Below, one piece after another: positions 9,116 to 58,418 of a DNA stretch of 64,000 nt (position 1 is the stretch's first letter; each line of letters opens with the position of its first letter). The translations under genes and the position numbers were made by a program. The notes under the pieces are model-generated. The model saw only the letters and a list, made by a program, of their open reading frames with translations. It was not told the origin of the DNA and made no database searches. Source of the stretch: an uncultured Gammaproteobacteria bacterium (GTDB lineage Bacteria > Pseudomonadota > Gammaproteobacteria > UBA9214); NCBI GenBank assembly GCA_942491995.1, contig CALOCX010000002.1, positions 35,758 to 99,757 on the forward strand. The letters are read 5' to 3'.

Positions 9116-9145
9116 ATGAAAACGGGGCCCTCGGGCCCCGTTGAT
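9116..9145 (-). terminator. rho-independent terminator after porin gene 1
   Basis: On the minus strand: acggggccc-ga-gggccccgt followed by TTTTCAT. Confidence 0.6.
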
Positions 9146-9165
9146 TAAAAATATAATAATGGTTG

Positions 9166-10236: not shown

Positions 10237-10361
10237 GCTGTGCTCCCCGGAAACTTCAGAATGCGGCTTACTTGACAAGCCTTGTAATATAAAGATAAAT
10301 CTACTCAATCGTCAACAAAAATGCAACATCAATTTCCATTATGTTGTTATTGAGCAACAGA

Positions 10362-10392
10362 AAAGAAAACGGGGCCAACTGGCCCCGTTTCC
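10362..10392 (-). terminator. rho-independent terminator after porin gene 2
   Basis: On the minus strand: acggggcca-gtt-ggccccgt followed by TTTTCTTTTC. This is the same hairpin family as at 9116 and 33121. Confidence 0.6.
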
Positions 10393-10414
10393 CGGTTCTG
10401 CTCGATACTGCCGA

Positions 10415-11509
10415 TTAGAACGTGTGCTTCATACCCAGCGAGAAATCACTGACCTTGTCGAAGTCATCATAGTCCCGCTGAGCGTAACCGGCATAGACCT
10501 TGGTACGCTTGCTGAGGCTATGTACACCGACGATTTCCCAGTTTTTGGACTTGGTACCCACTGACTCTGTGCCCAACGTACCGTCATCGTAAATAAGCGT
10601 ACCACCGTCGGCATCGTCAGCCTGGCCGTATGCCGCATAGATCAGGTTGTTGCCAAAACCGGCGGTACCACCGACGAACCAGGTATCGGCACCATCACCA
10701 TTGCCAACAACATCCTGGCCGATAACTACACCATCTTTGACGGCAAAGCCCGTGCGCCGACTGATTGCACCACCGTCACCCTCGTACTGTCCGAAGAGGG
10801 CGAACTTGTCGAAGCCCCAACGGCCACCGACCTTCCAGGCGTCGTCGTCGCCACCGGCATCGCTGGTGATGTAGTCAGCAAAGACCAGGAAACCACCGGC
10901 CTGCCAATGGCCACCGATACCCCAGGGGCTGTCGGCGTTCGGATCAGCCTGGTCTTCTTTCTGTACGGTGTAGTGACCGGCTACCTGGAAACCTGCAAAG
11001 GTCGGGCTGTCATAACGGATGGTGTTGGTGGCACGACCCTGAGCCGCGGTATCGCCGGCACCGGTGTGCAGGTTGGACTGCAGACCCCAGTCACGACCCT
11101 GGAGCGCGGTACGGTAGATCGGGTCCAGCATGGCACCGTGAGACTTGTAAACAGTCGAGATGGTACCAATGCGCAGCTTACCGAAGTTGCTGTCAAGACC
11201 TAACCACTGGTCACGATCGGTGATTGCATTATTTCCAATAGGATTAGATCCATTACGCTCGGTGGTGTCGTACTGGAAGTCAATCTTGAAGATCGCCTTC
11301 AGGCCGTTACCCAGGTCTTCACTGCCCTTGAAGCCAAACGAACAAGTGGTACAGGTCAGGTTGTTGAGGGTTTTGTTGCTCTGGTTTTTGTCCTTGCCGC
11401 TGTTAAAACTGGTATCGATGTGACCCATTGCAGTCACGTCAGCAAATGCACTGGACATACCACCCACGAGGGCGGCGCCAATCATTACCGGTAAGATTTT
11501 CTTAATCAT
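10415..11509 (-). CDS. outer-membrane porin, paralog 2
   Basis: Start MIKKILPVMIGAALVGG with AAGGGGA as SD. The C-terminus is DFSLGMKHTF. It is a tandem paralog of 9166..10236. Confidence 0.7.
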   Translation of the reverse strand: MIKKILPVMIGAALVGGMSSAFADVTAMGHIDTSFNSGKDKNQSNKTLNNLTCTTCSFGFKGSEDLGNGLKAIFKIDFQYDTTERNGSNPIGNNAITDRDQWLGLDSNFGKLRIGTISTVYKSHGAMLDPIYRTALQGRDWGLQSNLHTGAGDTAAQGRATNTIRYDSPTFAGFQVAGHYTVQKEDQADPNADSPWGIGGHWQAGGFLVFADYITSDAGGDDDAWKVGGRWGFDKFALFGQYEGDGGAISRRTGFAVKDGVVIGQDVVGNGDGADTWFVGGTAGFGNNLIYAAYGQADDADGGTLIYDDGTLGTESVGTKSKNWEIVGVHSLSKRTKVYAGYAQRDYDDFDKVSDFSLGMKHTF

Positions 11510-12041
11510 GATATTCCCCTTACAGAGTTGAAGTAGAGTTAACAAAGTCACTTGTCATTGCACGCGAGTACTTTACAACAACAAACAGCAAGAACGCAAC
11601 ACTTATTTTCAAAAAAACCACAGACTGCCTTATTGTGTTGTTTTGTTGTCACACCGTGAGGCATGACTCTCTCACCAGCCACTGTTTTCCATAGCTAAAA
11701 TTGTGGAAAGTCACTGTATTTACAGGGAGTTAGAATATTCCTACGGCACAGCAGCCACTCAGCGCCTGAATTGGGTACGCCAGCAGACACTCCGAGAACT
11801 GATGGATGTACATCAATTTCCACGTGTTGCTTACCTACCACAGACCATTATATAGGTACAAAACGACTCTTCCAGAAACGCCTTGGGACAGAAACGAATG
11901 GATGAAGCTAACCATTCCGGCAACCTTTGCGAATGATGCGACCTTCCTGAAAAGCAGCTGCGGCACAACGAAGAAACACCGTTACTGGAACCCGATTAAC
12001 GAGTAGTACACACGGCGCTGAAACATTACAAACCGGCAAAC

Positions 12042-13940
12042 TCAAGGTTCAGTTGAATATCCAAAGCTTTTAGCCCAGGGCTCAAGCAGTGGAACTATTC
12101 CTTTAATCTGATCCTGGTAATTCTTCCATCGTCCGATTGCTTGTGTATATAGACTCTGTGTCACCTGATTATAACTTGGAGTGGTTATCGTCTCCCTCGA
12201 CAATGCTGTCTGCTGAAAATCCAGTAAATGATCATGCCAGGCCAAACCCAGAAAGTTCAGTAGCGGTTCCGCGGCACCTTGCAAGTCATGGACAATATCT
12301 TCATACCTCAAAACTCCAGCATCAAGATCCAGGGCATTGTTGTAATGAACCCAAAGACTCATAACGGCATCATACAAGCTGGCAGATTGCTGCAGGGTCA
12401 GGAAATTCGCCATGGCATCGTTTAATTGAAAGTTCTGCATGAAACAACTCAGCACACAGTCGTACGGATGCCGTAATGCCAGAATGAATTTGGAAGCCGG
12501 GAAAACCCGGTGGATCAAACCAGCGTCAATGATATTCAGGGGCAGTTTGTCGATGACGAGCTTATGCGAACCATCAGGTTCAACATGAGAATTAAGCTCC
12601 TCGAAATATACTTCCCTTAACCCGGCTATCTGTTTGTCATCCAGGTCCGTCAGAAGATCAACTGTCGCGAGACCTCCCATGTGAGTCCGCATAGACTCCA
12701 CCATGTGTTTTTCTTCCACCACCAATACTTCGGGGTGTGACCGTAAAATTGTATCGAGGAGCGTGGTACCCGAGCGGGGGAACCCTACAAGAAATGCCAG
12801 TGAATATTGCCTGGTTGACGACTGTTTTGTGGACCATCTTATCTTCCCGGCATTCGCCCAGGATTCCGAGGTTTTTGATACTCGATCAAAGTAACGCTGC
12901 GCACTGAATTGCTGGCCAGCAGAAAATTGCCTGGCCATATTATTGGTTATCTCGAACTGAGAAAATGCGCTGGAAAACTCGCCAAGCCTGTCATATGTCT
13001 TTGAGAGAAGTTCCGAGTAACGCTGCCTTGTACGCGGCAAGAGTCTTTCGGGAGCTACCAGTTCAAGGAAATCACGAGCAGCTTCAAACTGCTTTTCCCT
13101 ACTGGCAAGCAGCGCCTTGAGAAACAGAAGTTCTGGATGGTTTTTTGGAAGTACCTGCTGTGCGCGATGCAAGGCCTTTTTCAGCTCGGTAACCCTGTTG
13201 TGCTTTTCGTAGAAATCACAAAGGCTGGTATGCGCGATTCCAAGATCAGGCTTGAGCTCGATCGCCTTCTCATAGCTCTCCACCGCCTCCTGCAACTTTC
13301 CAAGATCACAGAGTGCATTGCCGCGGTTGCTGTAAGCCTCGGCATAATCAGGCTTGAGCTCGATCGCCTTCTCATAGCTTTCCAGCGCACCCTCCAGTTG
13401 CCATAGCTCTCTAAGCACATTGCCACGGTTGCTGTAAGCCTCGGCATAATCAGGCTTGAGCTCGATCGCCTTCTCATGGCTCTCCACCGCCTCCTGCAGC
13501 CGCCCAAGGTCACAAAGTGCATTGCCACGGTTGCTGTAAGCCTCGGCATAACCAGGCTTGAACTGGATTGCCTTCTCACAGCTCTTCACCGCATCTTCCA
13601 GCCTCCCTAACTTGTGAAGTGCATTGCCACGGTTGCTGTAAGCATCCGCATAATCAGGTTTGAGCTGGATTGCCTTCTCATAGCTTTCCAGCGCCTGCTG
13701 CAGCTGCCCAAGGTCACAGAGTGCATTGCCACGGTTGCTGTAAGCATCCGCATAATCAGGCTTGAGCTCGATCGCCTTGTTGAATGCCTTGCACTGCCTC
13801 ATGAAACTTGCCTTGCTCCTGGCATGCCACTCCCAGGACATTGAGAATGAATACTGCTTGTGGATAGACCTGGAGTAATTCTCTACAAGCCTGCTCTGTC
13901 TTCGCCACCTGCCCGGAGTGATATAGATTGACCAGGGCAT
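12042..13940 (-). CDS. TPR-repeat protein with a C-terminal sulfotransferase domain (this is the downstream reading frame of a frameshifted gene)
   Basis: At least six 34-aa TPR units (AIELKPDYAEAYSNRGNAL...) are followed by GFPRSGTTLL, the PAPS 5'-PSB motif of sulfotransferases. Confidence 0.7.
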   Translation of the reverse strand: MPWSIYITPGRWRRQSRLVENYSRSIHKQYSFSMSWEWHARSKASFMRQCKAFNKAIELKPDYADAYSNRGNALCDLGQLQQALESYEKAIQLKPDYADAYSNRGNALHKLGRLEDAVKSCEKAIQFKPGYAEAYSNRGNALCDLGRLQEAVESHEKAIELKPDYAEAYSNRGNVLRELWQLEGALESYEKAIELKPDYAEAYSNRGNALCDLGKLQEAVESYEKAIELKPDLGIAHTSLCDFYEKHNRVTELKKALHRAQQVLPKNHPELLFLKALLASREKQFEAARDFLELVAPERLLPRTRQRYSELLSKTYDRLGEFSSAFSQFEITNNMARQFSAGQQFSAQRYFDRVSKTSESWANAGKIRWSTKQSSTRQYSLAFLVGFPRSGTTLLDTILRSHPEVLVVEEKHMVESMRTHMGGLATVDLLTDLDDKQIAGLREVYFEELNSHVEPDGSHKLVIDKLPLNIIDAGLIHRVFPASKFILALRHPYDCVLSCFMQNFQLNDAMANFLTLQQSASLYDAVMSLWVHYNNALDLDAGVLRYEDIVHDLQGAAEPLLNFLGLAWHDHLLDFQQTALSRETITTPSYNQVTQSLYTQAIGRWKNYQDQIKGIVPLLEPWAKSFGYSTEP

Positions 13941-27771: not shown

Positions 27772-30700
27772 TCAGTGCTCGCGGACAACACGAAATCCGA
27801 GGTTGTCGAGACGTGTATCCTGGTCATATTGGCTGCGCTTGGCATTGCGCAGTGAGTCTAGCGGACTGGTGTAGGCGCCGCCCCGTACGACCCGCATGGC
27901 GCATTCGGGAAACTGCCATGAGCTGCCATCTACCGGTGCACCATGGTAGCTGCCATGATAACAGTCAGACGTCCATTCCTGGACATTGCCGGTTACATCA
28001 TGCAGGCCGAAATCATTGGCTTCAAAGCTGCCCACAGGTGCCGTGCGCAGACTGTCCCACTCACTGCCACAGTCAAAGCAATTTGCATGAAGATTGTTAC
28101 TGTCATCATGCCACCAGAAACTGGCGACACTGCCGGCACGGGTGAAATACTCCCACTCGGCTTCTGATGGCAAACGGTATATCTGCCCTGTCTGCTCTGT
28201 AAGCCAGCGGGCATAGGCACGCGCATCATCCCAGGAAACATTGATCACCGGGCGCCCGCCACGGCCCCAGGACTCGTCATAAGGCAGCCGACGACCTGTC
28301 GCTCGCGCAAACCTGTCATATTCTTCGAATGTAACTTCATATTTACCGACAGAAAAGGCAGCCACATTCACCCGATGCCGCGGCCCCTCGTCAAAATTCA
28401 GAGAATTTCCAACACTACCCATTTCATAGCTGCCAGCCGGCAGCTCAACCATCACCGGACCCTGGCCACCAAGCTGGAGCTTTTCACGGTAGGAACGGCC
28501 GGCGACTACAGGCGCCAGGGACATCACGTCAACAGCCTCATCAGCCTGTGGTTGTAACTGTTCCTTATCAGGTACTGACGTCTGTACCGTGACATGTTCC
28601 ACAGCCGGCGGAGATTCCTGAACAGTTGCCGCAACTTGCTCGATTTCCATTTCCACAGACGCGGCGGCCGGTTGTACTTCAGTTGCAGGTGATTCACTGA
28701 TAACAATCGCTTCGGGTTCAGCCACCGGCTGCGTAACAACGGGTAATTGTCGCCCTGCGTCGTTGTCAAACAGCGGGACATCCACACCGAAAAACAGCCA
28801 GCCAGCCAGCGCACACGCAGTCACTGTACACAACCCGATTGCAGCACCAAGCCAGCGCCACTGCTTGTTTTCACGCCTGTCATCTACCGCGGAACGCTTC
28901 TGGCTGTCCTGCTCCCGGTCCACCGGGGTTACTGGCAATACTGCCTGCCGTGCTTTCGGTCCAGGCCCCGGGTGCCCGGATACTGCTTCAAGCTTGTCAA
29001 GGGACGGTACATGTAGCGGCTCGCTCGACACCTCCCCGGAATCCAGTTGCTGCCGGAGCGCGTCACGTTCCTGCTGCAGCTTGTCGCGAGCGGCTTCCGC
29101 CTCGGCTCTCAAGCGCAACGCAATCTCAACGTTCTTCTTGCTTTCATTCAGCTCATTGCGTAATTTTGCGGGGTCTTCGACCTGTTCGCCAACCCCCATA
29201 AGACCACGTGCGACCTCTACCTCACCACGCAAGGCATTCATCCTGTCGCGCAGTGACTGCTGCTCCTCAAGCGCTGCATCCCGTTCTTCTGTGTACTGCT
29301 TGAGCTGTGATTCGAGCTGTGAAATAGTTGCTACCGCCTGCCGGTTTTGTTCTTCCATCAAGTCGACATCGACCTTCCTGCGGTCTTTTTCCTGACGGGC
29401 GAGCACGGCAATTTCTTCGTGTGCCTTTTTCAGTTCCTGCTGAAGCCTGTCAATCTGGTCTTCAGTTTCTACATGCTCTGCAAGCAGTTCCCGGACGCGT
29501 TCCTGCTCCTCCTGTCTTGCTGCATTGCGGGCCTGCTCAATAGCACCATTATGATTGGACAGATTTGTTTCATGCTCTGTCGCGATTGAAGCAAGCTGCT
29601 CCTTCAACTCGCGCTGGCGTGCGGCCATCTCAGACCGCTCTTCCGCACGTGCCTGCCGTTCAGCATGCAGTTGTTCCCGCAAATTATCGACATCTTCACG
29701 CGCACCTTCGCGGTCCTTCTGATGGTCCGTCGTCTGTTGCTCGACTTTTTTTCGCAGCCTGTCTATTTGCCCCTGCAGCTCTTTTTCATTGTCGTTTTTG
29801 CGTGTCAGGTCCTCATGCGCTTTCTGCACAGACAACTTGTTCTCTTCCTCGAGCGCCTTCGCCCGTTCTTCCTGCTGTTCGAGCTGCAGACGCAGGTCGC
29901 TCAGCTGCTGTTGTAATATGTCACGTTCCTGCTGAAATGCTTCAGACTCACTCCCGTGCAGTGCCAGCTGTTCCTGCAGAGAACTCAGATGCGCATCCTT
30001 TTCCTCATTTGACTGTTCAACAGCACTTGTCTTTTCCCTGGCCTCCTGCAACTGCGACTGTAACTGCTGGAGTTGCTCATTCGAAGCAGATGCCAGTGAC
30101 TCCGCCTCCTGTTTCAGTGACTCTATCCCGCTTTGCAGTTGCTGTTTCTGCGCCTCACTATCAGCGTGTTGTTGCTGTAGCTGTTCACGCTCCGCCATCA
30201 CGGCCTGCAACTCATCATCCTGTCTGGACCGATCCTGCTTGAGTTCAAGCTGCTTGATCTCAAGTTGCTCAATCCTTTCATTTGATTTGTCGAGCTGTGC
30301 TTTAAGTTCTGCCTCAAGTGCAGACTTGTCTTCGCTGGATTGCAGCAACGCCAGTGACAACTCCTCGCGGAGCGTGGTCACAACCTGCTGCTCGCCATCC
30401 AGCACCTGCTGCAACGCAGCCCGCTCGGCCTCCCATTCCGACTGCTGCCGCTGGGCGGCCTCTTCCGAGGCCTGCCTGTCTGCCAGCAGGTTTTCCAGCT
30501 GCTCCCTTTGCTCTTCCTGTTGCACACCGGCATCACGCAATTCGGTGCGTAATATCTCGTTATCCCGCTGCAGCGCCTGCAGCTGGCCCGAGAGTGCAGA
30601 GTTGTCTGCCTCCAGTCCGGACACCTGCCCCGATTTCTCATTGAGTTGCGCCGAAACCTCGGCAAACTCATGCTTGAGATGGTCAAGTTCCTCTCTTAAA

Positions 30701-32100
30701 GTGTCGGATAAAGTCGTTTGCTGCTGCAAACGCTCGTCAAATTCCTTTTCTGCGAGCTGCTCCTGCAACCGTCCAAGTTGCTGTTCATAGTCACTGGCGC
30801 GCCCGGAGAATTCTTCCTGGAGTGCCTGATACCGTTCCTGCAGCAGTGCTTCAGCTGCAGCTGCCTGCTGGTTCACCATAACGTCTACCGCAGATTCTGA
30901 TCCAACGGGGGCATCCTGAGCGTCGCCCGCAGGGCTGCCGTCAGCATCTGATTGCCCGGCAAACCCGGAACTCCCACCGTCAAAATCGACAACCTCTGCA
31001 AGTACCTCGATGGAATCTGCCGCATCTTCCCCGTCCACAGGCTCGTTGGCACTGCCTGACAGGCCGGGGATGCCTCCCTCCAGCACATACACATCAAAGC
31101 CCTTGTGACTTAACAGGAAAGCGGCTGATTCGCTGCGCCGTCCGGTGTCACAACAAATGATGTATTTCGAGTTGAAAACCAGTTCTGACAGTTCATCCCG
31201 CAAGCGGAATAAAGGAATGTTGACACTGTCTTCGAAGGCACCGTTCTCATATTCATCCGCCGTCCTGACATCCACCCAGACGGCACCATCATCCACCATG
31301 GCTGCGGCCTGTTCGTAATCCACCCGCTTGACCAACTGATTTTTCAGTAACTCCACAAAGTCCTTCTTCGCCAGCCGCATCAATAAGCCGTCAGTCAACA
31401 TTGATACTGTGGCATTACGCCTGGTGTTGGACACCAGGGCATCCTCACCAAAGGAATCGCCTTCGCCCAGTTCAGCCAGCAATTGTGGCTCATCACCGGG
31501 GGATTCCTGCCTGGTTACCACACAACGGCCTTCATGAAGGGTGTAGAAATAATCGCCGTTATCCCCCTGGCGTATAACCGTGTCACCTGCCTTAACCGGT
31601 AGCGATTCCATCTTGATCAACAGGCTCTGGATCATCGAGGGCGGTATCTTTATAAACACTTCAGACTGAAGGACGCGCGTCATCCAGTCTTTATTCGTTT
31701 CTGCACCGATTTCTACCACTTCCGCCGTACTGGATTGATCCCATGTCAGAAAGACATCGAGCAGGCTGGAGTCGATCTTCGCGATCACGACCTTTTTAAC
31801 GGCTCTCGCTGACAGTGATCGGGGTTGCTGGTTGGCAATCGGATAGCGGCTTATATCCGTACCAGCCTCGACTTCACTGGTCACCTTCCTGAAACCGTCA
31901 ATCAGGTTAACCTTGCCTTCCAGCAGATAGATTGACTGGTTATCCCTGTCTCCCTTGCGGAACAGGTAGTGCCCTGCCAGCACTTCCTCGATGATGATTT
32001 TCTCCGACACTTCCCTGAAGCGTTCCGCAGATAGCGCATTCAGCGGCACCAACTCTTGCAGAAGCTTGCTATCCACCGTTAATTTCTTCGCTGCGCGCAT
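27772..32100 (-). CDS. giant multidomain membrane signalling protein: 2x cNMP-binding, rhodanese, ~600-aa coiled coil, one TM helix, and a C-terminal FGE-sulfatase (SUMF1-like) domain
   Basis: N-terminal CAP-type effector domains (GEGDSFGEDALV...RRNATV). Rhodanese loop YIICCDTGRRS. A Q/E/L/R-rich heptad region from about aa 440 to 1040. TM helix WRWLGAAIGLCTVTACALAGWLFFGV. C-terminal LPSEAEWEYFTRAG...RVVRGGAYTS is the FGE/SUMF1 hallmark. AGGTGA SD before the ATG at 32100. Confidence 0.85.
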   Translation of the reverse strand: MRAAKKLTVDSKLLQELVPLNALSAERFREVSEKIIIEEVLAGHYLFRKGDRDNQSIYLLEGKVNLIDGFRKVTSEVEAGTDISRYPIANQQPRSLSARAVKKVVIAKIDSSLLDVFLTWDQSSTAEVVEIGAETNKDWMTRVLQSEVFIKIPPSMIQSLLIKMESLPVKAGDTVIRQGDNGDYFYTLHEGRCVVTRQESPGDEPQLLAELGEGDSFGEDALVSNTRRNATVSMLTDGLLMRLAKKDFVELLKNQLVKRVDYEQAAAMVDDGAVWVDVRTADEYENGAFEDSVNIPLFRLRDELSELVFNSKYIICCDTGRRSESAAFLLSHKGFDVYVLEGGIPGLSGSANEPVDGEDAADSIEVLAEVVDFDGGSSGFAGQSDADGSPAGDAQDAPVGSESAVDVMVNQQAAAAEALLQERYQALQEEFSGRASDYEQQLGRLQEQLAEKEFDERLQQQTTLSDTLREELDHLKHEFAEVSAQLNEKSGQVSGLEADNSALSGQLQALQRDNEILRTELRDAGVQQEEQREQLENLLADRQASEEAAQRQQSEWEAERAALQQVLDGEQQVVTTLREELSLALLQSSEDKSALEAELKAQLDKSNERIEQLEIKQLELKQDRSRQDDELQAVMAEREQLQQQHADSEAQKQQLQSGIESLKQEAESLASASNEQLQQLQSQLQEAREKTSAVEQSNEEKDAHLSSLQEQLALHGSESEAFQQERDILQQQLSDLRLQLEQQEERAKALEEENKLSVQKAHEDLTRKNDNEKELQGQIDRLRKKVEQQTTDHQKDREGAREDVDNLREQLHAERQARAEERSEMAARQRELKEQLASIATEHETNLSNHNGAIEQARNAARQEEQERVRELLAEHVETEDQIDRLQQELKKAHEEIAVLARQEKDRRKVDVDLMEEQNRQAVATISQLESQLKQYTEERDAALEEQQSLRDRMNALRGEVEVARGLMGVGEQVEDPAKLRNELNESKKNVEIALRLRAEAEAARDKLQQERDALRQQLDSGEVSSEPLHVPSLDKLEAVSGHPGPGPKARQAVLPVTPVDREQDSQKRSAVDDRRENKQWRWLGAAIGLCTVTACALAGWLFFGVDVPLFDNDAGRQLPVVTQPVAEPEAIVISESPATEVQPAAASVEMEIEQVAATVQESPPAVEHVTVQTSVPDKEQLQPQADEAVDVMSLAPVVAGRSYREKLQLGGQGPVMVELPAGSYEMGSVGNSLNFDEGPRHRVNVAAFSVGKYEVTFEEYDRFARATGRRLPYDESWGRGGRPVINVSWDDARAYARWLTEQTGQIYRLPSEAEWEYFTRAGSVASFWWHDDSNNLHANCFDCGSEWDSLRTAPVGSFEANDFGLHDVTGNVQEWTSDCYHGSYHGAPVDGSSWQFPECAMRVVRGGAYTSPLDSLRNAKRSQYDQDTRLDNLGFRVVREH

Positions 32101-32745
32101 ATTCACCTGGTTCAGAATTCAGTGATCGTCGTTATTTACCCCGTTCACGGGGCCCCGCCACGGCACTACACCGCACCTTGTTTATCGGCAAAAACAGCTT
32201 GAAATTAAGGAGATGAACTGTGCGGCAAGAGACGCGTAACAGGATGCAGGACACGACAGGATCAACGCCTCGCAGCACATTGGCGGTGATCAGTCTGCAA
32301 CCGCTAGCAGGCTATCGGCCACCAAGGTGAATTGCTGCACAGCGTTATACATCGCGCAAAATTAACTATATTTATGTTTAATATCAGTTGGTTGGACTAT
32401 ATCTCGGATATCAATGTCTAGTAAAAAGCAGGACCCGGTTAACATGTGGCAACGCTGTAGAAGTATCTGGCCACCTGCCACCAGGACTGCCGGCAACATC
32501 ACTGGCGGTCATCGTGACACGCTATAACCATTCACCCTGCATACTCTGACAACAATGTGGTTGCCGGGTCGTCAACAGACACATGACAGAACACACCGAA
32601 TAAACATCCATGCCGCCGTCTGCCGTATGGCGCTGAAGTACTGCTATAGAAGGTGTTTTATTAAATTAAAACCCTTTAACATTTCTATTATTGTGCTATC
32701 TTACGCGTGCTATTAATTTCACCACCTGAAGAGGAGCGACAACGA

Positions 32746-38511: not shown

Positions 38512-40665
38512 TCAGAACTTGCCGTAATAGCCTTCTTTCAGGGCATCATAGAGATTCGCGGCGGTGTGCATCTCACCGTCGTATTCGACCTCTTCATTGC
38601 CCTTGAGACTGACCTTGGAACCGTCGTCGAGCGTAAATTCATAGACGGTATTTTCCAGGTCCTCGCCTTTCACCAGCACACCCTGGAAGGCTTCCGGGTT
38701 AAAACGGAAGGTGGTACAGCCCTTCAGGCCCTTTTCATAGGCATAGCGGTAGATATCCTTGAACTCCTCAAACGGGTACTCGGTAGGGACATTGGCGGTC
38801 TTGGAGATGGAGGAATCCACCCACTTCTGCGCTGCCGCCTGGATGTCGACATGCTGTTTTGGCGTCACATTATCCGCCGCGATGAAATAATCCGGTAACG
38901 AATGCCCCTCGCCCTCCATACTCGCCGTGGCCTCGGCATTGACCAGTTCCCGGTAGGCAAGCAATTCAAACGAAAACACGTCCACCTTTTCCTTGGTCTT
39001 GCGTCCCTCCCGTATGACGTTACGGAAGTAGTGGTGCGCAAAGCTTGGCTCGATACCGTTACTGGCATTGTTGGCAAGCGACAGGGAGATGGTACCGGTG
39101 GGCGCAATCGAGCTGTGATGCGTAAAACGGGCACCGGTTTCCGCCAGTTGCCGTGTCAACTCGGGAGCGACCTCGGCGACGCGCTGCATGTAGCGGCTGT
39201 ACTTGGCATGCAACACCTTGCCCTTGACGAAATCTCCGGGCAGGTAGCCGTCACGGCGCATCTCCGGACGTTTGCGCAGCATCTCCTCGGTCACCTCGAA
39301 GTCCTCGTCCATGATCGGAGCAGGTCCCTTCTCCTTTGCCAGGTCGAGGGCAACCTGCCAGCCGGTGATGGCCAGTTCACGACTGACGCGTTCAGTAAAT
39401 TCGAGGGACGCCGCCTCGCCATACTTCATGCGCAACATGGTGGCCGTGGAACCCAGTCCCAGGAACCCCATGCCGTGACGGCGCTTGTTCATGATCGCCT
39501 CGCGCTGACCGTCCAGCGGCAGGCCATTGATCTCGACGACGTTATCGAGCATGCGCGTAAAGATGGCAACGACCTTGCGGAATTCCTCCCAGTCGAACTC
39601 GGCCTGCTCGGTAAACGGGTTGCGCACGAACTTGGTCAGGTTGACCGAGCCCAGCAGACAGGAACCGTACGGCGGCAGCGGCTGCTCGCCACAGGGGTTG
39701 GTGGCGCGGATATTTTCACAGAACCAGTTGTTGTTCATCTCGTTGACCTTGTCGATGAGAATGAACCCCGGTTCAGCGAAATCATAAGTAGAACTCATGA
39801 TCATGTCCCAGAGGCGCTGCGCCGGCACTGTCTTGTAGATGCGGCACGCAACCAGACCGGCATTGTTGGCAATGTAATCACCCTTGTAGGGCCACTCACG
39901 CCATACGATCTGTTGCGGATCGTGCAGATCGATACTGTCATCAAGTTCCTTGCGGTTGATTGGAAAGGCCAGTGGCCACTCATCCCGGTTCCTGACCGCA
40001 TCCATGAACTCGGTCGTGATCAGCAGCGACAGGTTGAACTGGCGCAGGCGGCCGTCTTCACGCTTGGCACGAATAAAATCCAGGACATCCGGGTGGCCCA
40101 CATCGAAGGTCGCCATCTGTGCACCACGCCGGCCACCGGCCGAGGACACGGTAAAACACATCTTGTCGTAGATGTCCATGAACGACAGCGGACCCGAGGT
40201 ATAGGCACCGGCACCGGAGACATAGGCCCCCTTGGGACGCAGCGTGGAGAACTCGTAACCGATGCCGCAACCGGCCTTCAGTGTCAGACCGGCTTCGTGC
40301 ACCTTTTCGAGAATATTGTTCATGGAGTCCTGCACCGTGCCGGAGACTGTGCAGTTAATGGTCGAAGTTGCCGGCTTGTGTTGCTGCGCACCGGCATTGG
40401 AGGTGATACGCCCTGCCGGAATGGCACCATGACGCAACGCCCACAGGAATTCCTTGTGCCAGAGCTCGCGAAGCTCCGGCGTGGCTTCAACATCGGCGAG
40501 CGCCCGGGCAACACGCTGGTAGGTCGAGTCGATGGTGTCATCCACCGGCGTGCCGTCTTTGGCCTTCAGGCGGTACTTGGTCTCCCATATATCCTGCGAG
40601 GCAGGCTGCAATGGAATATCAGCGACGCTGGTCGGTACAGCTTCGAGATGCGCAGTCGTTGTCAT
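38512..40665 (-). CDS. nrdJa: adenosylcobalamin-dependent ribonucleoside-diphosphate reductase, NrdJa
   Basis: 717 aa. RNR barrel motifs (NPCGEQPL, the thiyl Cys loop). Lacks the C-terminal part, which nrdJb carries. Confidence 0.9.
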   Translation of the reverse strand: MTTTAHLEAVPTSVADIPLQPASQDIWETKYRLKAKDGTPVDDTIDSTYQRVARALADVEATPELRELWHKEFLWALRHGAIPAGRITSNAGAQQHKPATSTINCTVSGTVQDSMNNILEKVHEAGLTLKAGCGIGYEFSTLRPKGAYVSGAGAYTSGPLSFMDIYDKMCFTVSSAGGRRGAQMATFDVGHPDVLDFIRAKREDGRLRQFNLSLLITTEFMDAVRNRDEWPLAFPINRKELDDSIDLHDPQQIVWREWPYKGDYIANNAGLVACRIYKTVPAQRLWDMIMSSTYDFAEPGFILIDKVNEMNNNWFCENIRATNPCGEQPLPPYGSCLLGSVNLTKFVRNPFTEQAEFDWEEFRKVVAIFTRMLDNVVEINGLPLDGQREAIMNKRRHGMGFLGLGSTATMLRMKYGEAASLEFTERVSRELAITGWQVALDLAKEKGPAPIMDEDFEVTEEMLRKRPEMRRDGYLPGDFVKGKVLHAKYSRYMQRVAEVAPELTRQLAETGARFTHHSSIAPTGTISLSLANNASNGIEPSFAHHYFRNVIREGRKTKEKVDVFSFELLAYRELVNAEATASMEGEGHSLPDYFIAADNVTPKQHVDIQAAAQKWVDSSISKTANVPTEYPFEEFKDIYRYAYEKGLKGCTTFRFNPEAFQGVLVKGEDLENTVYEFTLDDGSKVSLKGNEEVEYDGEMHTAANLYDALKEGYYGKF

Positions 40666-53058: not shown

Positions 53059-54807
53059 TCACGACCCGGCCCCGTCCGGCGGGGTGTTGGCAATCAGGTA
53101 CATGGGCCGGTCCGGCGGCATGCCTTCCGCGAAGAAAAAAGGCACCTCAGCGGGGTTATTGAACAAGCGCTCGAAGTATTTCGGTTCGATCAGGATGTAG
53201 GACAGCGTGTCCGTCTCCTGCATTATTCGCATCAGTTCGGCCTCGTTCACCTCCGGCACCCGTCGGTCCAGGTAGAAGCCGTATTCTTCGTCCCAGGAAC
53301 GATACATATAGACAGGCCGCTCCCCGACCAGGCTGGCGATGGCAGCGATATAGGGACGGGTATCCTCCCTGACACTGTTGATGGACTGCATCATGAACAG
53401 CATAAAGGCCAGCAAGATCCCCTGGAACACGATGTACAGGCGGATCAGCGGCGGCCGCTCGCGGAGGGTCCAGCCGTACCCCCACAGTCCGCCCAGCAGC
53501 AAGATGCCCCCAAGGATGTAATGCCGCCATTGTCCCAGGGTAGCCAGATAGGGTCTGGCCTCCTCCAGCCGTTCCGGACCCAGCGAGTCCTTCAGCCAGG
53601 TCCCGGGCCACTCTGAAGAGAGAATCTGCGGGATGAGTGCAAGCAGCAGTAGCAGGACCAGCGCCGTTCCGCTGGTCACCAGGAACACCCGGCGCAACGA
53701 TCGGGGGCGGATCGTCAGGCTAAGGTAGCCGGCCACGAGCCAGGCAGCGGCCGGATAGAGCGGCAGGATGTAATCGCTGCGCTTGATCCCGGAGAGCGAG
53801 AAGAACAGCAGTATCCAGAGAATATAGACCACCAGCAGACCCTCGACCCCGGCGCGTCTGGACCGGTCGCGCAGCACCTGGTAGATGATCACCGGTATGA
53901 ACAGTGCCCAGGGGAAGAAGCCCCACAGAAAGTGCATCGGATATTGCCAGCCGGGCTGCCGCTGGAAGGTCGTGAACTCAAGCGCGCTGAACAGATTGCC
54001 AAAGCGCGACAGGTTTTCCTCAAGGATGAACCAGCGGAAAAAGTGACCCTCGGTGATGACGGACGCGTAAACGAACCAGGGCAGTGCAAGCGCCAGAAAC
54101 AGCAGCATGCCCCTGCCGAGGAACACCCTGGACAGTTCCCGGAAGGCACCCTGCAGCAGCAGGAACAGAAACACCGGGACGCCGGTAACAATGAAGCCCA
54201 CCGGTCCCTTGGTCATCACCGCCAGGGCGGCCGCAATGAAAAACAGGTAATAGCCGTGATTCCGTCCCCCGACCTCCCGCTCGGGCGACACCCAGTAGCC
54301 GGCGAATGACACGATCGCGGCAAAGGCGAGCAGGCACAGCATCAGGTCCATGCGCGCCATTTGCGCCATCCCGATCACCTTGGGACTGGTGACCAGAATG
54401 GCGGCGGCCAGCAACAGCGGGGTCCGTTGACCACGCTCCTGTGGCAGCAGCCGGAACATCAGCATGAGCAATACCACGCTAACCAGTGAGGGCAATCGGG
54501 CGGCCAGTTCCCAATGCGCCCCGGTCACGGATCTGGCCAGTCCAATGGTCCAGAAATAGAGAGGCGGTTTGTCGTAGTCCTCCGCCCCGTTCATGTGGTT
54601 GACGCCCCAGTCACCAAGCAACAGGAACTGCCGGGCGATCTCCGCGGACTCCGCCTCCAGGGTGCCGTTCAGTGCCCGGACTGAAGCCTGCCAGACGACC
54701 ACCCCGAGCAACAGCAGGATGATCGCCAGGGGAATGATGGCCGGAAGTCCTGAACGGTCGTCAGACGAGGCGCTTGCATCGCCTGAAAAGTGCGGCTGGC
54801 TTGTCAT
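53059..54807 (-). CDS. family 39 glycosyltransferase (ArnT/PMT-like)
   Basis: 582 aa, polytopic. YDKPPLYFW is the GT39/ArnT signature loop. Confidence 0.8.
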   Translation of the reverse strand: MTSQPHFSGDASASSDDRSGLPAIIPLAIILLLLGVVVWQASVRALNGTLEAESAEIARQFLLLGDWGVNHMNGAEDYDKPPLYFWTIGLARSVTGAHWELAARLPSLVSVVLLMLMFRLLPQERGQRTPLLLAAAILVTSPKVIGMAQMARMDLMLCLLAFAAIVSFAGYWVSPEREVGGRNHGYYLFFIAAALAVMTKGPVGFIVTGVPVFLFLLLQGAFRELSRVFLGRGMLLFLALALPWFVYASVITEGHFFRWFILEENLSRFGNLFSALEFTTFQRQPGWQYPMHFLWGFFPWALFIPVIIYQVLRDRSRRAGVEGLLVVYILWILLFFSLSGIKRSDYILPLYPAAAWLVAGYLSLTIRPRSLRRVFLVTSGTALVLLLLLALIPQILSSEWPGTWLKDSLGPERLEEARPYLATLGQWRHYILGGILLLGGLWGYGWTLRERPPLIRLYIVFQGILLAFMLFMMQSINSVREDTRPYIAAIASLVGERPVYMYRSWDEEYGFYLDRRVPEVNEAELMRIMQETDTLSYILIEPKYFERLFNNPAEVPFFFAEGMPPDRPMYLIANTPPDGAGS

Positions 54808-54966: not shown

Positions 54967-57900
54967 TCACGTCGTCAGGCGTCGATAGATATCCGACACC
55001 TTCAGCGGTAACTTGCGCACCTCGTCGATCACGGTGTAGTTCACGGCACCGTACATGTGCGGCAGATAGTCACGTGCCTCGGTGTCGATGGTGATACAAA
55101 AGGAATGGATGCCGCTACGCTTGGCCTCGATCAGTGCCTGGCGGGTATCCTCGATGCCATAGGCGCCACGGTAGGTGTCATAGTCATCGGGCTTGCCGTC
55201 GGAGAGCGTGATCAGCAGCTTGGTGCGTGCCTCCACCTCGTTCAGGAGGTGCGACAGGTGCCGGATGGTGACGCCCATGCGCGTATAGTCCTTCGGCCTG
55301 ATACCGCTGATGCGGCCGCGCACGGTGTCATCGTAGTGTTCATCAAAACGTTTCACCCGGTACACCTCGCAGCGCTTGCGTGTCATGCCGGAAAAACCGT
55401 AAATCGCATAGCGGTCCCCGAGCGTCTCCAGCGATTCGCATAACAGTACCAGCGACTCGCGCTCGGCATCGTTGATCCAGCCCTTGGTGGAACCGCTCAT
55501 ATCCACCATGAACATCACCGCGATATCGCGTTCCAGCTTGTGCATCTTGGTGAAGACACGCTCGGACATTTCCAGACCCATAGTTGTGTCAGCCCAGGAC
55601 TCGACCAGGGCATCGATGTCGACGTTGTCACCATAGGGTTGCTTCTTCAGCAACTTGTCCTCGCCGCGCAGTGCCTCGAAAGTGCGCCGCAGGTGCCCGG
55701 CGAGGCCACGGTACTTGTTGAGGGTGTCAGTGACGAAACTGTCGTCCAGCGGACTGACTTCCAGCTCGCGCAGCACCGTCCAGTTCTTGCGGTAATGCTG
55801 GCGCTCGTAGTCCCACTCGTTGTACAGGAACGCACCCTCCTCATGGTAGGTGCCCTTCCAGACGTCCTCGACACTGCGCTCACCGATGTCGTCTGCAACA
55901 TAGGCGCCGTCACCGGCCGCATACAAATATTCTTCCGGTATTTCACCGAGGTCCTGGATGATGGACGCCATGGTGCCCTTGACGTTATCCGGTGGCTTGA
56001 TCGGCTTGCCATCGAGCTGCATTTCATAGCTCTTGCCATTCTGATCTTCATTCGACTCGACCTCGCGCAATTCGAATGGCAAGCGGCGCCCGTCAGTCTC
56101 CTCGCTGTCGTCATGCTCATCCTCCCCTGCCTCATCCTGCGCATCTTCAATAGCCGTCAACTCCTGCTCGAGTCGCAACAGATGCAGGCGGAACAGCTGC
56201 TTGTCAGCCGCAATGCGCGCGGCACGCACCTTGTCGACCACCTCCGGACGCATCACACCCTGGTAGATCGTACCCGCAGGCACCGGGCCACCCGCAAGAC
56301 GCTGCAGCCACAGCAGCGTGTCCTCGACACACGCATCCGCATGTGAAAGCTGTTCCGCGGCAGCCAGCCAGTCGTCCTGCAGCGCCTGCTCAGTGTCGTT
56401 GCGAAAGCGCGCGAGTTGTCGGTAGACTCCCGGCAGCATGTCGCGAATACGCGCGTCCAGACGCAACGTCTCCAGCGCATGAAAACAGGCCAGCGCTGCC
56501 TCGGGGTCGGCATAGCGGCCGAACACCTGCGACGGCTCGATGCGCCAGCTACCGAACCAGGTCTGCGCCCACAGGTGCACCAGCATCACCTTGTAAAGCT
56601 GAAAATTTTCCTCGTGACCCGCATAGCGGTTGATGCTGGCGGGCAGGTAAATGGTTTCGGTATCCGTGTAACACTGCTCGGCGCACTCGATCTTCAGGCG
56701 GCGTCCGTTAAGACCCTGCACAAACATCTCCAGCACATTGACGACATCATCAAAGGCCACACCGCTGGTACGCGCCTTGTGGGCACGTGCAAAACTCTCC
56801 ACGTCCCTGAACGCGACCACCGCCGGGTGCAGACCGCGTGTGTCGTAGATATCCATGCAGGACAGTAGCCAGGCCTCGACACCGTCTGCATCCATCATCC
56901 GTAACGCCGGACACACATGCGAGGCAAAGTTCAGCGCCATGCCGGAACTGGTACGCGCCACGACACTGACCCAGTGCAGCACGAAATCCTGCTGTTCACG
57001 CGGGAATTCGGCGAGCGCGCGTGCCGGCTCCTCGGCGGCACCCAGCGAGATCATGTGAATATCGAGACGCTCCTCGAGTTGCGCGGCCGTCAACGGCAGA
57101 CCACCGGTTTGCAGAAACTCGGTCTCGTCATACCAGCGCGCCGCGACACCGGCCGGCAACACGCGTCCATCGCGGGTACTGACACCAAGCTGCAACGGCT
57201 CGATGGTGCCACCGGGCAGCACCTCGCGCAGCAATTGCCCAAGCCCCTCGGCCTTCCAGGTGGTGGCGCCACTGTCCGTCGACAGCCACACGCCGAGACA
57301 TTGTTTGGTGACCAGGCGTGGCAGGTATTTGACCAGCTTGGCCATGTCCACCTCGCGGTCCCACATCTGGCCCTTCGGGCCATATCCGACAGGCGGAATC
57401 GGTAAAATGATGACATCGAAGCGCCGCTGGCGACGCAGCAACTCCTCGACGAAGTCGATGACGTCATCGTGCACGTACTCGACCTGCGCCTCACCGGCAG
57501 TGGCACGACTCAAGGCAAGCATCTCCGCACTGGCATCGACGTGCACCACCGACGCACCCGCGCGTAACGCCTGTGCCGTGACATAGCCATTGCCGGCAAA
57601 CAGGTTCAGTACCTGGATATCATCGAGGTCGTAACAGCCCTCGATACGCTGACGCAACCATTCGGCACAGGAAATGTCGCGTCCGTGCAGACCGACGCGG
57701 CCGCGGTCATCGAGACGGCAGATGACCTGTTGATCGCCGAGACTGACGCTCCACTCGCGTAACAGGCCACTGCGGGTCGGCTCCCAGTGACGCTGCACAC
57801 CGACATCTGCAACATAGATCCAGTCGGCATCCCAGTGCGCACTGGCCGGCTCGCCACTTGCCAGACGATCCGGGCTTTCCACCAGGTATTCACCCCAGCG

Positions 57901-58008
57901 CTCCAGCTTGCGGCCGGCACCGAAATCGATCAGCTCATAATCGCCCAGCGGGGTCTGCACCCGTGCATCACGGGTATCGGATTCGGAAACAGTGGGAAGC
58001 TGAACCAT
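54967..58008 (-). CDS. fusion protein: N-terminal RlmI/YccW-like class I SAM methyltransferase domain, then a NorD/CbbO-like region, then a C-terminal von Willebrand A domain
   Basis: The N-terminus (VLNLFAGNGYVTAQALRAGASVVHVDASAEMLALS...RFDVIILPIPPVG) matches the Methyltrans_SAM/RlmI pattern. The C-terminus MFMVDMSGSTKGW...ITLSDGKPDD...CITID is a VWA domain with a MIDAS (DxSGS) motif. Confidence 0.75.
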   Translation of the reverse strand: MVQLPTVSESDTRDARVQTPLGDYELIDFGAGRKLERWGEYLVESPDRLASGEPASAHWDADWIYVADVGVQRHWEPTRSGLLREWSVSLGDQQVICRLDDRGRVGLHGRDISCAEWLRQRIEGCYDLDDIQVLNLFAGNGYVTAQALRAGASVVHVDASAEMLALSRATAGEAQVEYVHDDVIDFVEELLRRQRRFDVIILPIPPVGYGPKGQMWDREVDMAKLVKYLPRLVTKQCLGVWLSTDSGATTWKAEGLGQLLREVLPGGTIEPLQLGVSTRDGRVLPAGVAARWYDETEFLQTGGLPLTAAQLEERLDIHMISLGAAEEPARALAEFPREQQDFVLHWVSVVARTSSGMALNFASHVCPALRMMDADGVEAWLLSCMDIYDTRGLHPAVVAFRDVESFARAHKARTSGVAFDDVVNVLEMFVQGLNGRRLKIECAEQCYTDTETIYLPASINRYAGHEENFQLYKVMLVHLWAQTWFGSWRIEPSQVFGRYADPEAALACFHALETLRLDARIRDMLPGVYRQLARFRNDTEQALQDDWLAAAEQLSHADACVEDTLLWLQRLAGGPVPAGTIYQGVMRPEVVDKVRAARIAADKQLFRLHLLRLEQELTAIEDAQDEAGEDEHDDSEETDGRRLPFELREVESNEDQNGKSYEMQLDGKPIKPPDNVKGTMASIIQDLGEIPEEYLYAAGDGAYVADDIGERSVEDVWKGTYHEEGAFLYNEWDYERQHYRKNWTVLRELEVSPLDDSFVTDTLNKYRGLAGHLRRTFEALRGEDKLLKKQPYGDNVDIDALVESWADTTMGLEMSERVFTKMHKLERDIAVMFMVDMSGSTKGWINDAERESLVLLCESLETLGDRYAIYGFSGMTRKRCEVYRVKRFDEHYDDTVRGRISGIRPKDYTRMGVTIRHLSHLLNEVEARTKLLITLSDGKPDDYDTYRGAYGIEDTRQALIEAKRSGIHSFCITIDTEARDYLPHMYGAVNYTVIDEVRKLPLKVSDIYRRLTT

Positions 58009-58082: not shown

Positions 58083-58418
58083 TCAGCTACAACCCTTGGG
58101 TCGTGGCAAACCGGCGATCTTGTTGGCGCATTTAATCAGGCCAGTGGGAAACAGTGAGTAGATATACTTCTGATCACTGCGGTCCTTGCCATACTTCTGC
58201 TTCATCAACTTGGAGAAGGCACGTGGCTCGCATACAGTTCCGTTTTCCTGGAAATACTCACGCGCCAGGTTAATGATATCCCAGTGCTCCTGGGTGAGTT
58301 CGTCGATCTTCTCGTTTTTTGCAATCTGGTGCGCCAGCTCCTCGCTCCACTCATCCAGATTTTCCAGCCAGCCAGCCTCGCTCAACTGGATCGTCTTGCC
58401 ATCTACGACTGCTTCCAT
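58083..58418 (-). CDS. dsrC: DsrC/TusE-family sulfur-relay protein with both C-terminal cysteines
   Basis: The C-terminal arm CANKIAGLPRPKGCS has the Cys-x10-Cys pair of DsrC-type proteins. Confidence 0.75.
   Translation of the reverse strand: MEAVVDGKTIQLSEAGWLENLDEWSEELAHQIAKNEKIDELTQEHWDIINLAREYFQENGTVCEPRAFSKLMKQKYGKDRSDQKYIYSLFPTGLIKCANKIAGLPRPKGCS

Follow-up and report, generated by a model that had tools for sequence, protein, structure and literature searches.

A methyltransferase-fold domain fused to a NorD/CbbO-type VWA protein in sulfur-oxidising Gammaproteobacteria

Pairs of MoxR-class AAA+ ATPases and VWA proteins are widespread, and the few clients known to us are cNOR, Rubisco, CO dehydrogenase, methanol dehydrogenase, chelatases and Frd. 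Little is understood about client selection by the VWA adaptors. In the window analysed here, a 64-kb stretch of gammaproteobacterial DNA, a sequence-only reading had noted a NorD/CbbO-like VWA protein that carries an N-terminal RlmI-type methyltransferase domain, sits apart from any MoxR-type AAA+ gene, and could be either an unusual activase-adaptor fusion or a new enzyme type. The locus therefore raises the question of whether this fusion is a genuine gene, and, if so, whether it serves an AAA+ machine, acts as a methyltransferase, or both.

A conserved single-frame fusion gene

The gene lies on the reverse strand at positions 54,967 to 58,008 and is a complete, single open reading frame with an ATG start and a stop codon at 54,967-54,969, encoding a 1013-aa protein composed of a methyltransferase-fold domain, a helical domain and a VWA domain. 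An identical protein is present on ENA contig_39259, and the same architecture recurs in over 120 protein clusters (70-99% identity). Full-length, single-frame copies were recovered 57 times from species-representative genomes (more than 55 species-level genomes), and their hosts are sulfur-oxidising Gammaproteobacteria, namely Thiogranum, Thiohalobacter and related MAGs. The sequence at the fusion junction, GVAARW(Y/F)DETEFLQTG..PLTA.QLEERLD, is conserved across copies, and all three parts of the reading frame are under purifying selection. The fusion is thus a real and conserved gene of these bacteria.

Assembly-type defects do occur in single MAG copies, as a frameshift in L024 and as split HSPs in L045 and L048. 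These defective copies speak for the view that a frameshift or misassembly joined two genes, an outcome that the sequence-only reading had named as a ground for abandoning the fusion. We reject such a merger because 57 independent full-length copies keep a single frame and the junction is conserved; with purifying selection running along the entire reading frame, its probability is negligible. The fusion likely arose once; in a neighbour-joining tree, drawn without support values, the fused sequences L058, P0519 and P0121 are interleaved with methyltransferase-less sequences.

No paper describing a methyltransferase-CbbO/NorD fusion was found in a literature search, and the labels in use ("NorD", "VWA domain-containing protein" and "methyltransferase domain-containing protein") each cover only part of the protein. 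An involvement in anti-phage defence, as a system of the MoxR-VWA or methyltransferase type, was considered and rejected, as PADLOC models gave no meaningful match to the fusion protein, the sole match being a generic local one between the SAM-motif region and mad2.

A NorD-type adaptor and its ATPase partner

The C-terminal part of the protein (residues 725-1013; 54,970-55,836, reverse strand) is a NorD-type VWA domain by phmmer, profile and Foldseek searches, and ends in a tail equivalent to that with which NorD docks onto NorQ. In phmmer searches of the PDB, residues 724-1011 matched NorD (9qhd_G, E 5e-48; 9qh6_G, E 3e-42), with the 9qhd_G alignment reaching the last residue. A profile search gave a NorD-VWA match at E 1.6e-66, and Foldseek matched the domain to the NorD VWA domain and to the MIDAS domain of Rea1. 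The MIDAS DxSxS motif is present as D836-M-S838-G-S840 (55,489-55,503, reverse strand) and is completed by T909 (55,282-55,284) and D937 (55,198-55,200); these five residues are invariant wherever the motif region is intact and are lost only in the frameshifted L024 copy. The assignment as a NorD/CbbO-like VWA protein with a MIDAS site is therefore upheld.

Together with NorQ, NorD inserts the FeB cofactor into cNOR (structures 9qh6 and 9qhd; PMC13036017, PMC9976466), and for PdNorD a finger segment, residues 403-448, enters the NorQ pore (PMC13036017). Experiments have demonstrated that this finger and the NorD C-terminus both touch NorQ and are required for function (PMC13036017). When the phmmer alignment is mapped onto these published residues, residues 783-828 of the fusion (55,525-55,662, reverse strand) correspond to the PdNorD finger, with a helix predicted at residues 798-809 in the AF2 model. 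Many finger residues are invariant across the family, the remainder being conservatively substituted, and the C-terminal tail aligns with that of NorD to the last residues. By alignment, then, both NorQ-contact elements of NorD are conserved in the window protein, and they are equally conserved in lineages with and without an adjacent cbbQ gene. To our knowledge, binding of the ATPase ring is the only role of the finger and tail.

Ahead of the VWA domain lies an acidic, partly disordered linker of variable sequence that includes a small beta unit (residues 628-724; 55,837-56,127, reverse strand), in which AF2 confidence falls below a pLDDT of 50 at residues 628-642 and 701-722; NorD has an essential linker in the equivalent position (PMC13036017). 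The linker follows a helical middle domain (residues 305-627; 56,128-57,096, reverse strand), which AF2 models confidently as a helical bundle. Methyltransferase-less homologues of about 710 aa align with the fusion from residue ~305 through the C-terminus at 45-56% identity, and the middle domain matches their N-terminal domain. It is probably also the counterpart of the NorD/CbbO N-terminal domain; the profile search against NorD returned a faint ordered match of 2 bits, over NorD residues 88-119 only. PF06213, the family of the cobaltochelatase VWA subunit CobT, reaches only 18.5 bits in the middle domain where 26.1 is required, and no cob genes lie in the flanks of the fusion gene; the protein does not fall into this family. 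Overall, the fusion shares with NorD a homologous C-terminal region of ~290 residues, a complete MIDAS site, and a finger, tail and linker at equivalent positions. In contrast, its N-terminal and middle regions can barely be aligned with NorD, norCB is not nearby (no nor genes were found in the annotated flanks of fusion loci), and the added methyltransferase-fold domain makes the protein ~370 residues longer. The annotation "nitric oxide reductase activation protein" is probably a misnomer.

The absence of a MoxR-type AAA+ gene within several kb was borne out. When all window ORFs were scanned for Walker A motifs, the only carriers were an ABC ATPase and an AAA_22 protein of the GspA/ExeA type. 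A CbbQ query in tblastn (E<1) gave no match either, across the 64 kb or in a further 10 kb past the window end (74 kb in total). Of 53 related genomes whose upstream sequence reaches far enough, however, 26 have a cbbQ/norQ gene in the same orientation 3-478 nt upstream of the fusion gene, while an adjacent cbbQ is missing from about half of the fused genes. The upstream ATPase of these relatives has AAA_5 and CbbQ_C domains and the H2-insert motif GRFLIHGGET, and its matches to CbbQ (6l1q, E 1.6e-103) and NorQ (9qh4, E 3e-98) identify it by sequence as a bona fide CbbQ/NorQ. Within the window's own clade, L057 has cbbQ 8 kb upstream of the fusion gene, beside hdrA. We infer that the ancestral cbbQ-VWA pair was split apart in the window's lineage and that the gene for the partner lies at another place in this genome; the suggestion that the protein might work without an AAA+ partner is disfavoured by these relatives and by the conserved NorQ-contact elements.

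A methyltransferase fold with a degenerate motif IV

The N-terminal domain (residues 10-300; 57,109-57,981, reverse strand) has a class I methyltransferase fold according to phmmer, Pfam, AF2 and Foldseek, and is modelled with pLDDT above 90 throughout; for the whole fusion, the AF2 model has a pTM of 0.45 and an uncertain interdomain arrangement. In phmmer searches of the PDB, residues 20-292 matched the SAM-dependent methyltransferase 2igt (E 5.9e-23), and RlmI/YccW (3c0k) was a weak match (E 0.003). Foldseek ranked 2igt highest, at a target-normalised TM-score of 0.81, with RlmI-family structures next, and Pfam Methyltransf_25 matched residues 133-202 at 29.5 bits (cut-off 27). PF10672 gave no match to the fused domain at E below 0.01, NCBIfam RlmI models scored the fusion at 18-19 bits against cut-offs of 575-712, and Pfam found no PUA domain in the protein. 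Standalone orthologues, 40-46% identical to the fused domain, do match PF10672, and they sit in the same syntenic slot, alongside degP, RNR and TSCPD. The earlier label "RlmI-type" is therefore right at the superfamily level, given that 2igt is closest, RlmI-family structures come next and the standalone orthologues match PF10672, but it does not extend to RlmI proper, which has an N-terminal PUA domain that 2igt and the fused domain both lack. The closest relatives of the fused domain are PUA-less 2igt-like enzymes. With these enzymes (PF10672, ~285 aa) it has the fold and motifs I-III in common, and from them it differs in lacking DPPxF/Y, in being joined to a 710-aa VWA protein and in escaping PF10672.

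A check of the SAM-binding residues, as the sequence-only reading had proposed, indicates that motifs I-III are retained. Motif I (VLNLFAGNGYVT, residues 133-144; 57,577-57,612, reverse strand) has invariant G139 and G141, and is followed by motif II, VVHVDAS, in which the acidic residue is conserved and HV(D/E) is found in nearly all fused copies. Motif IV, in contrast, is degenerate (IILPIPPVGYGP, residues 200-211; 57,376-57,411, reverse strand): where standalone orthologues read (I/M)DPP(S/K)(F/Y)GRG, the window protein reads LPIPPVG. No departure from DPP[SKA][FY] is seen in 11 standalone homologues, nor in more distant family members. Among the fused copies, only lineage L059 still has DPP, as DPPGF; the other basal lineages read SPPRI, SPPYF, TPPFI or RPPAL, and the crown clade reads LPxPx[VLIT]G[HY]GP, with the former Asp position variable (I/V/A/C). 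Selection on the domain (dN/dS 0.08-0.27) is nevertheless as tight as on the helical middle domain. O- and C-methyltransferases have no DPPxF/Y motif, and loss of motif IV is no proof of inactivity; the strong conservation would also fit an altered catalytic specificity. With DPPxF/Y lost and the SAM-binding motifs kept, the active new enzyme type that had been envisaged is the less likely reading, and the fused domain is probably a non-catalytic pseudo-enzyme.

Gene neighbourhoods, candidate clients and rival readings

As the sequence-only reading had stated, the fusion gene sits between a DsrC/TusE-like gene 74 nt upstream (58,083-58,418, reverse strand; PF04358, E 8e-37) and a PMT/ArnT-like GT39 glycosyltransferase gene 159 nt downstream (53,059-54,807, reverse strand; domain search). 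A DsrC-like gene lies directly upstream (39-551 nt) only in the window's cbbQ-less clade of 74-92% identity, in seven related loci (L006, L022, L024, L038, L040, L042 and L052), and in L057 it stands between cbbQ and the fusion gene. The GT39 gene is found downstream only in relatives of at least 84% identity (L006, L007, L024 and L038). Since these neighbours are kept in the closest relatives only, a functional operon with them was rejected. Counts in a promoter and terminator scan around the fusion gene equalled the shuffled expectation.

A more widespread neighbour is the hdr operon. In 23 of 48 fused loci, hdrB-hdrC-hdrA(QmoB-like)-hdrA(QmoA-like) is divergent from cbbQ, the two operons being divergent and not co-transcribed; this HdrAACB/QmoABHdrCB gene set is known from sulfur oxidisers (PMC6397845). 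The ~710-aa methyltransferase-less VWA proteins are found in Chromatiaceae, Thiotrichaceae and other Gammaproteobacteria (for example Thiocystis violascens WP_014778841.1, annotated "NorD"), and have the MIDAS site and finger of the fusion, to which they are 50-60% identical over residues 305-1013. The N-terminal domain is missing from them, and their flanks carry no separate methyltransferase gene for 10 kb; a split version suspected in L075, in which such a gene would stand between cbbQ and the VWA gene, was rejected, as the intervening 2 kb contain carbamoyltransferase fragments and a lipase-like ORF. Several of their loci, including L075 and L087, share the divergent hdrAACB and cbbQ-VWA arrangement, and the hdr-cbbQ-VWA association therefore predates the fusion. 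Other methyltransferase-less relatives occur in unrelated gene contexts. The fixI, RNR and TSCPD part of the neighbourhood is old synteny. The cbb3 oxidase genes (fixI/ccoNOQP) recur beside cbbQ-less loci, yet they are convergent, and the oxidase stays an unsupported candidate client; an ancient common gene block with fixI/S, hdr, cbbQ, the VWA gene, RNR and TSCPD, also present around the methyltransferase-less L088, accounts for their adjacency.

On balance, we favour, with moderate confidence, a reading in which the fusion is a VWA adaptor of a CbbQ/NorQ-class (MoxR) AAA+ machine whose partner is encoded elsewhere, with a methyltransferase-fold module that is probably non-catalytic and with Hdr as the best client candidate. 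Judged by homology to NorQD, the finger ahead of the VWA core would enter the pore of the CbbQ hexamer and the C-terminal tail would dock the ATPase ring, while the helical middle domain and acidic linker would pass on force and the intact MIDAS site would grip an acidic residue of the client protein. The methyltransferase-like domain would have been captured from a standalone 285-aa enzyme of the 2igt/RlmI superfamily, and would act as a ligand-binding or client-recognition module, most likely not as a methyltransferase. The family would then be a natural case of an adaptor gaining a conserved, enzyme-derived domain of the recognition type.

Three other accounts of the protein's function were weighed against this adaptor reading. 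One holds that the fusion is a bifunctional enzyme, in which the N-terminal domain is an active methyltransferase whose chemistry has changed (to O-, C- or S-methylation, for instance, or to a protein substrate) and which modifies the client held or remodelled by CbbQ-VWA. The retained motifs I-III, the tight selection on the domain, the Methyltransf_25 match above threshold and a very high-confidence fold that superposes on a SAM-dependent enzyme are all consistent with it, but motif IV decays stepwise after fusion, from DPPGF through SPPYF, TPPFI, SPPRI and RPPAL to LPxPP, and the former Asp position turns variable, a pattern typical of relaxed catalytic constraint; we consider such an enzyme possible but unlikely. 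Independence from AAA+ proteins in the window's lineage, with the fusion acting by itself or together with non-AAA+ partners (the DsrC-like and GT39 proteins, for instance), would account for the lack of an AAA+ partner gene over the nearest 55 kb on one side and 16 kb on the other, for the fused genes without adjacent cbbQ, and for the DsrC-like gene upstream in the window and seven loci of its clade. Against it stand the finger and tail, known for ATPase-ring binding alone yet equally conserved without adjacent cbbQ, the hdrA-cbbQ pair kept 8 kb upstream in the same-clade L057, and the confinement of both neighbours to close relatives, which together leave this account quite improbable.

A link to Rubisco was also considered, with the fusion as a CbbO paralogue that brings CbbQ to Rubisco in autotrophic sulfur oxidisers. 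In the CbbQO Rubisco activase, CbbO serves as the VWA adaptor (CbbQ structures 6l1q and 5c3c; PMC4660213), and relatives of the fusion resemble that system in their two-gene order, cbbQ then a large VWA gene, and in their chemolithoautotroph hosts. The relatives' ATPase scores best against the two Rubisco-activase structures, the hosts (Thiogranum, Thiohalobacter and Chromatiaceae relatives) are autotrophic, and the L001 cluster has genes for pyruvate kinase and a class II aldolase nearby. However, the NorQ score nearly equals the CbbQ score, no Rubisco signature was found in ~85 loci with flanks of up to 10 kb per side, where hdrAACB is the conserved neighbour instead, and the Thiocystis violascens homologue adjoins neither cbbQ nor Rubisco genes. 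Proteins of ~785 aa, presumed to be CbbO-type, are only ~40% identical to the fusion, over the C-terminal part, as against 45-56% for the ~710-aa family. A Rubisco client is accordingly improbable.

Returning to the adaptor reading, the best client candidate is the flavo-iron-sulfur complex (QmoAB-HdrCB-like) that hdrAACB encodes for cytoplasmic sulfur oxidation, on the ground that the hdr operon is conserved next to cbbQ in divergent orientation. Electrons from APS reductase are believed to pass to this complex. A search for literature on hdrAACB together with CbbQ found nothing relevant. The fuller proposal, that HdrAACB is a new CbbQ/NorQ client in sulfur oxidisers and that a dead methyltransferase was recruited in one gammaproteobacterial lineage as a SAM/SAH-sensing or client-recognition module, is speculative, and we give it a low probability; if true, it would couple the assembly or reactivation of an iron-sulfur flavoenzyme to a metabolite signal. 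The conserved genomic link between cbbQ-VWA and hdrAACB nonetheless suggests a new client that can be tested, and since Thiogranum longum is cultured and has the full cluster, the hypothesis is open to experiment.

Domain architecture and spread of the fused gene

The fusion gene (window 54967-58008, minus strand) is a single ORF encoding 1013 aa, and an identical protein is on record from an 85-kb ENA contig, contig_39259 of ERZ25039514. Its downstream neighbour, 159 nt away, is a PMT/ArnT-like GT39 gene (53059-54807, minus), and a DsrC/TusE-like gene (58083-58418, minus) lies 74 nt upstream. Pfam places Methyltransf_25 at residues 133-202, barely over threshold, with weak CobT and VWA_2 matches. 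PDB sequence searches match residues 20-292 to the SAM-dependent methyltransferase 2igt (E 5.9e-23), residues 724-1011 to NorD of the NorQD cryo-EM structures (9qhd_G, E 5e-48; 9qh6_G, E 3e-42) and, weakly, the RlmI structure 3c0k. The AlphaFold2 model (106-sequence alignment, mean pLDDT 84) comprises a methyltransferase fold (residues 10-300, pLDDT >90), a helical domain (305-627), an acidic linker (628-724) that is partly disordered and includes a small beta unit, and a VWA domain (725-1013). The top Foldseek structure is 2igt (target-normalised TM 0.81), with further matches to the NorD VWA domain, RlmI-family enzymes and the MIDAS domain of Rea1/midasin. The methyltransferase and VWA architecture described by the sequence-only reading is therefore correct. 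Its term "RlmI-type" holds at the superfamily level only, as Pfam finds no PUA domain and gives PF10672 no score, and the NCBIfam RlmI models fall far under their cut-offs. As it lacks motif IV and a PUA domain and falls short of the model thresholds, the fusion protein is not a bona fide RlmI.

Proteins of ~1010 aa form >120 clusters at 70-99% identity, and a genome scan taking one genome per species yielded 71 loci, hosted by Thiogranum, Thiohalobacter, 'Ectothiorhodospiraceae' and unclassified gammaproteobacterial MAGs. Full-length single-frame copies are present in 57 loci, at identities as low as 52%, the sequence at the junction is conserved, and dN/dS is low in the methyltransferase-like (0.08-0.27), middle (0.14-0.29) and VWA (0.02-0.10) domains. 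The fusion proposed from sequence alone is thus genuine, and it is old. Frameshifts or split HSPs affect homologues from some long-read-derived MAGs (L024, L045 and L048); at L024 (10001-13025, 92% identity) the frame is lost past ~813 residues. Indels introduced in assembly are a more probable cause than pseudogene formation. At L058/L084 (CP070733.1) the frame is open for ~1004 codons, and the deposited call P0493 (743 aa) begins ~250 codons into the ORF, leaving the methyltransferase-like domain unannotated; gene calls cut short in this way may make methyltransferase-less proteins look more numerous than they are. The record containing L016 (JABDRC010000237.1) is titled as a 'Halobacteria archaeon' MAG, yet carries a gammaproteobacterial fusion gene (78% identity), and the archaeal label is probably binning contamination.

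In a 50%-identity representative library, the best matches are one more fused cluster, followed by many ~710-aa proteins, found for example in Thiocystis and Thiohalocapsa, that align with the fusion protein from residue ~305 to its end at 45-56% identity. Because they align only from residue ~305 onward, the methyltransferase-fold domain is a later addition to an older ~710-aa family. In a neighbour-joining tree without support values, most fused proteins fall in one clade and a few are interleaved with unfused ones. The fusion protein is a genuine and conserved form, particular to its lineage, of an adaptor family that is already known. It shares the MIDAS, finger and tail of NorD/CbbO in sequence and model, and is predicted on that footing to work like NorD or CbbO, but in the window it has neither an adjacent Q gene nor a nor or Rubisco client. 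A methyltransferase-NorD/CbbO fusion is not described in the literature searched, and PADLOC models returned nothing relevant for the protein.

Likely origin of the methyltransferase-like domain, and its motifs

Related sulfur oxidisers, Sulfuriflexus among them, have PF10672 proteins of 285 aa that stand alone (40-46% identity). These proteins are the likely source of the fused domain, since their gene slot (methyltransferase, degP on the opposite strand, RNR, TSCPD) is the one occupied by the fused gene in Thiogranum. The (D/N/S)PP(F/Y/W) motif of class I amino-methyltransferases positions the target nitrogen. This motif IV is invariant as DPP[SKA][FY]G in the standalone proteins and more distant homologues, and in the fused proteins it decays stepwise, from DPPGF in the basal lineage at L059, through the SPPYF, TPPFI, SPPRI or RPPAL of further basal lineages, to LPxPx[VLIT]G[HY]GP in a large crown clade, where the window protein reads LPIPPVG. 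A check of the SAM-binding residues, which the sequence-only reading had proposed, finds that the fused proteins keep both LNLFxGxG (motif I) and the HVD/E of acidic motif II. The loss of motif IV argues against the ancestral activity, and the kept SAM-site motifs, taken with the purifying selection, speak for a binding role that has been kept. Given this combination, we lean modestly towards a non-catalytic ligand-binding or client-recognition module in preference to an enzyme of changed chemistry.

A predicted CbbQ partner and a candidate client

No MoxR-type AAA+ gene adjoins the fusion gene, as had been claimed: only two window proteins have Walker A motifs, one an ABC ATPase and the other an AAA_22 protein of the GspA type, and a CbbQ tblastn at E<1 finds none in the window or 10 kb past it. 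That the protein acts independently of an AAA+ partner is nevertheless unsupported. Of the 53 fused loci whose upstream sequence reaches far enough, 26 have a same-strand gene of 270 aa at a distance of 3-478 nt upstream, and its product carries AAA_5 and CbbQ_C domains and matches CbbQ (6l1q, E 1.6e-103) and NorQ (~1e-98). These relatives' CbbQ proteins present the H2-insert motif GRxL(L/I)xxxxT, which touches the NorD finger (PMC13036017), as GRFLIHGGET. Experiments have shown that the finger and the extreme C-terminus of NorD mediate function and the binding of NorQ (PMC13036017); the finger (PdNorD 403-448) corresponds to residues 783-828 of the fusion protein, and both it and the NorD-equivalent C-terminus are highly conserved family-wide. 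Within the window's own clade, L057 (79% identity) has cbbQ 8 kb upstream. Because relatives have an upstream cbbQ and the window protein conserves both contact elements, the sensible conclusion is that it is predicted still to need a CbbQ-type ring, the cbbQ-VWA pair having been split apart in the window lineage.

In 23 of 48 fused loci, four genes run divergently from cbbQ. They encode two HdrA-like proteins, one of 428 aa and one of ~740 aa that includes an MvhD/FlpD domain, as well as HdrC and HdrB. This set is known as HdrAACB or QmoABHdrCB in the sulfur-oxidiser literature, where it is tied to APS reductase (PMC6397845). The same order is found in the methyltransferase-less loci L075 and L087, so the arrangement predates the fusion; at L088 another CCG-domain gene takes the divergent place. 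MoxR-VWA pairs are usually encoded next to their clients, and on gene neighbourhood only the Hdr/Qmo complex is therefore the best available guess at a client. No Rubisco signature was found in any locus examined, and a cbbQ-hdrAACB link is not described in the literature searched. In loci lacking an adjacent cbbQ, including the window, fixS-fixI and ccoNOQP lie 1-8 kb away and convergent, a proximity that appears to reflect an old common neighbourhood (fixI/S, hdr, cbbQ, VWA gene, RNR, TSCPD), likewise visible at the unfused L088. One cbbQ-less locus, L046, is on a closed MAG chromosome (CP070821.1). Other unfused relatives have unrelated gene contexts. The value of the finding lies in a probable pseudo-enzyme module and a possible new client.

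Other genes near the VWA loci

A position directly upstream of the fusion gene (39-551 nt) is confined, for the DsrC/TusE-like gene, to the cbbQ-less clade of 74-92% identity to which the window belongs; at L057 such a gene (5185-5517) sits between cbbQ and the fusion gene. The DsrC/TusE-like protein of the window ends in ...LIKCANKIAGLPRPKGCS, where the last residue but one is a Cys and another Cys lies 13 residues upstream, a spacing that we take to differ from that of the canonical DsrC CysB. At L075, cbbQ and the VWA gene are 2 kb apart, and the space between them (8031-9667) is filled by N- and C-terminal pieces of a split carbamoyltransferase and a GDSL-lipase-like ORF, which resemble decayed pseudogenes left by an insertion between the two partners.

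The class II ribonucleotide reductase beside the cluster carries a LAGLIDADG-endonuclease intein at L087 (14452-17703, 1083 aa) and L088 (15955-19221, 1088 aa), and the window copy (38512-40665, 717 aa) is intein-free. A 1444-aa window protein (27772-32106, minus) has two cNMP-binding domains and a rhodanese domain, and ends in an FGE-sulfatase domain. At L085 a similar 1406-aa protein with cNMP and rhodanese domains is encoded 2.4 kb away from the VWA homologue, which has no methyltransferase domain, and close to the Thiocystis homologue (L082) an FGE-sulfatase gene precedes one for PfkB; either a repeated association or ancient synteny could account for this. Also at L082 (Thiocystis violascens CP003154.1), a gene for an 1891-aa protein (4266-9941) with no Pfam match on record lies 60 nt upstream of the VWA homologue on the same strand, preceded by a PspA/IM30 gene and with no cbbQ nearby; its product could be an alternative partner for this VWA family. 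The window genes at 8053-13940 (minus), encoding a 337-aa WD40 beta-propeller, two tandem Porin_4 proteins and a 632-aa TPR and sulfotransferase protein, are unrelated to the fusion. Downstream of three methyltransferase-less VWA homologues on unrelated contigs lies a gene for a ~180-aa retropepsin-like aspartic protease (Asp_protease_2 / gag-asp_proteas; L082 12405-12947, L085 13052-13609, L086 19595-20134).
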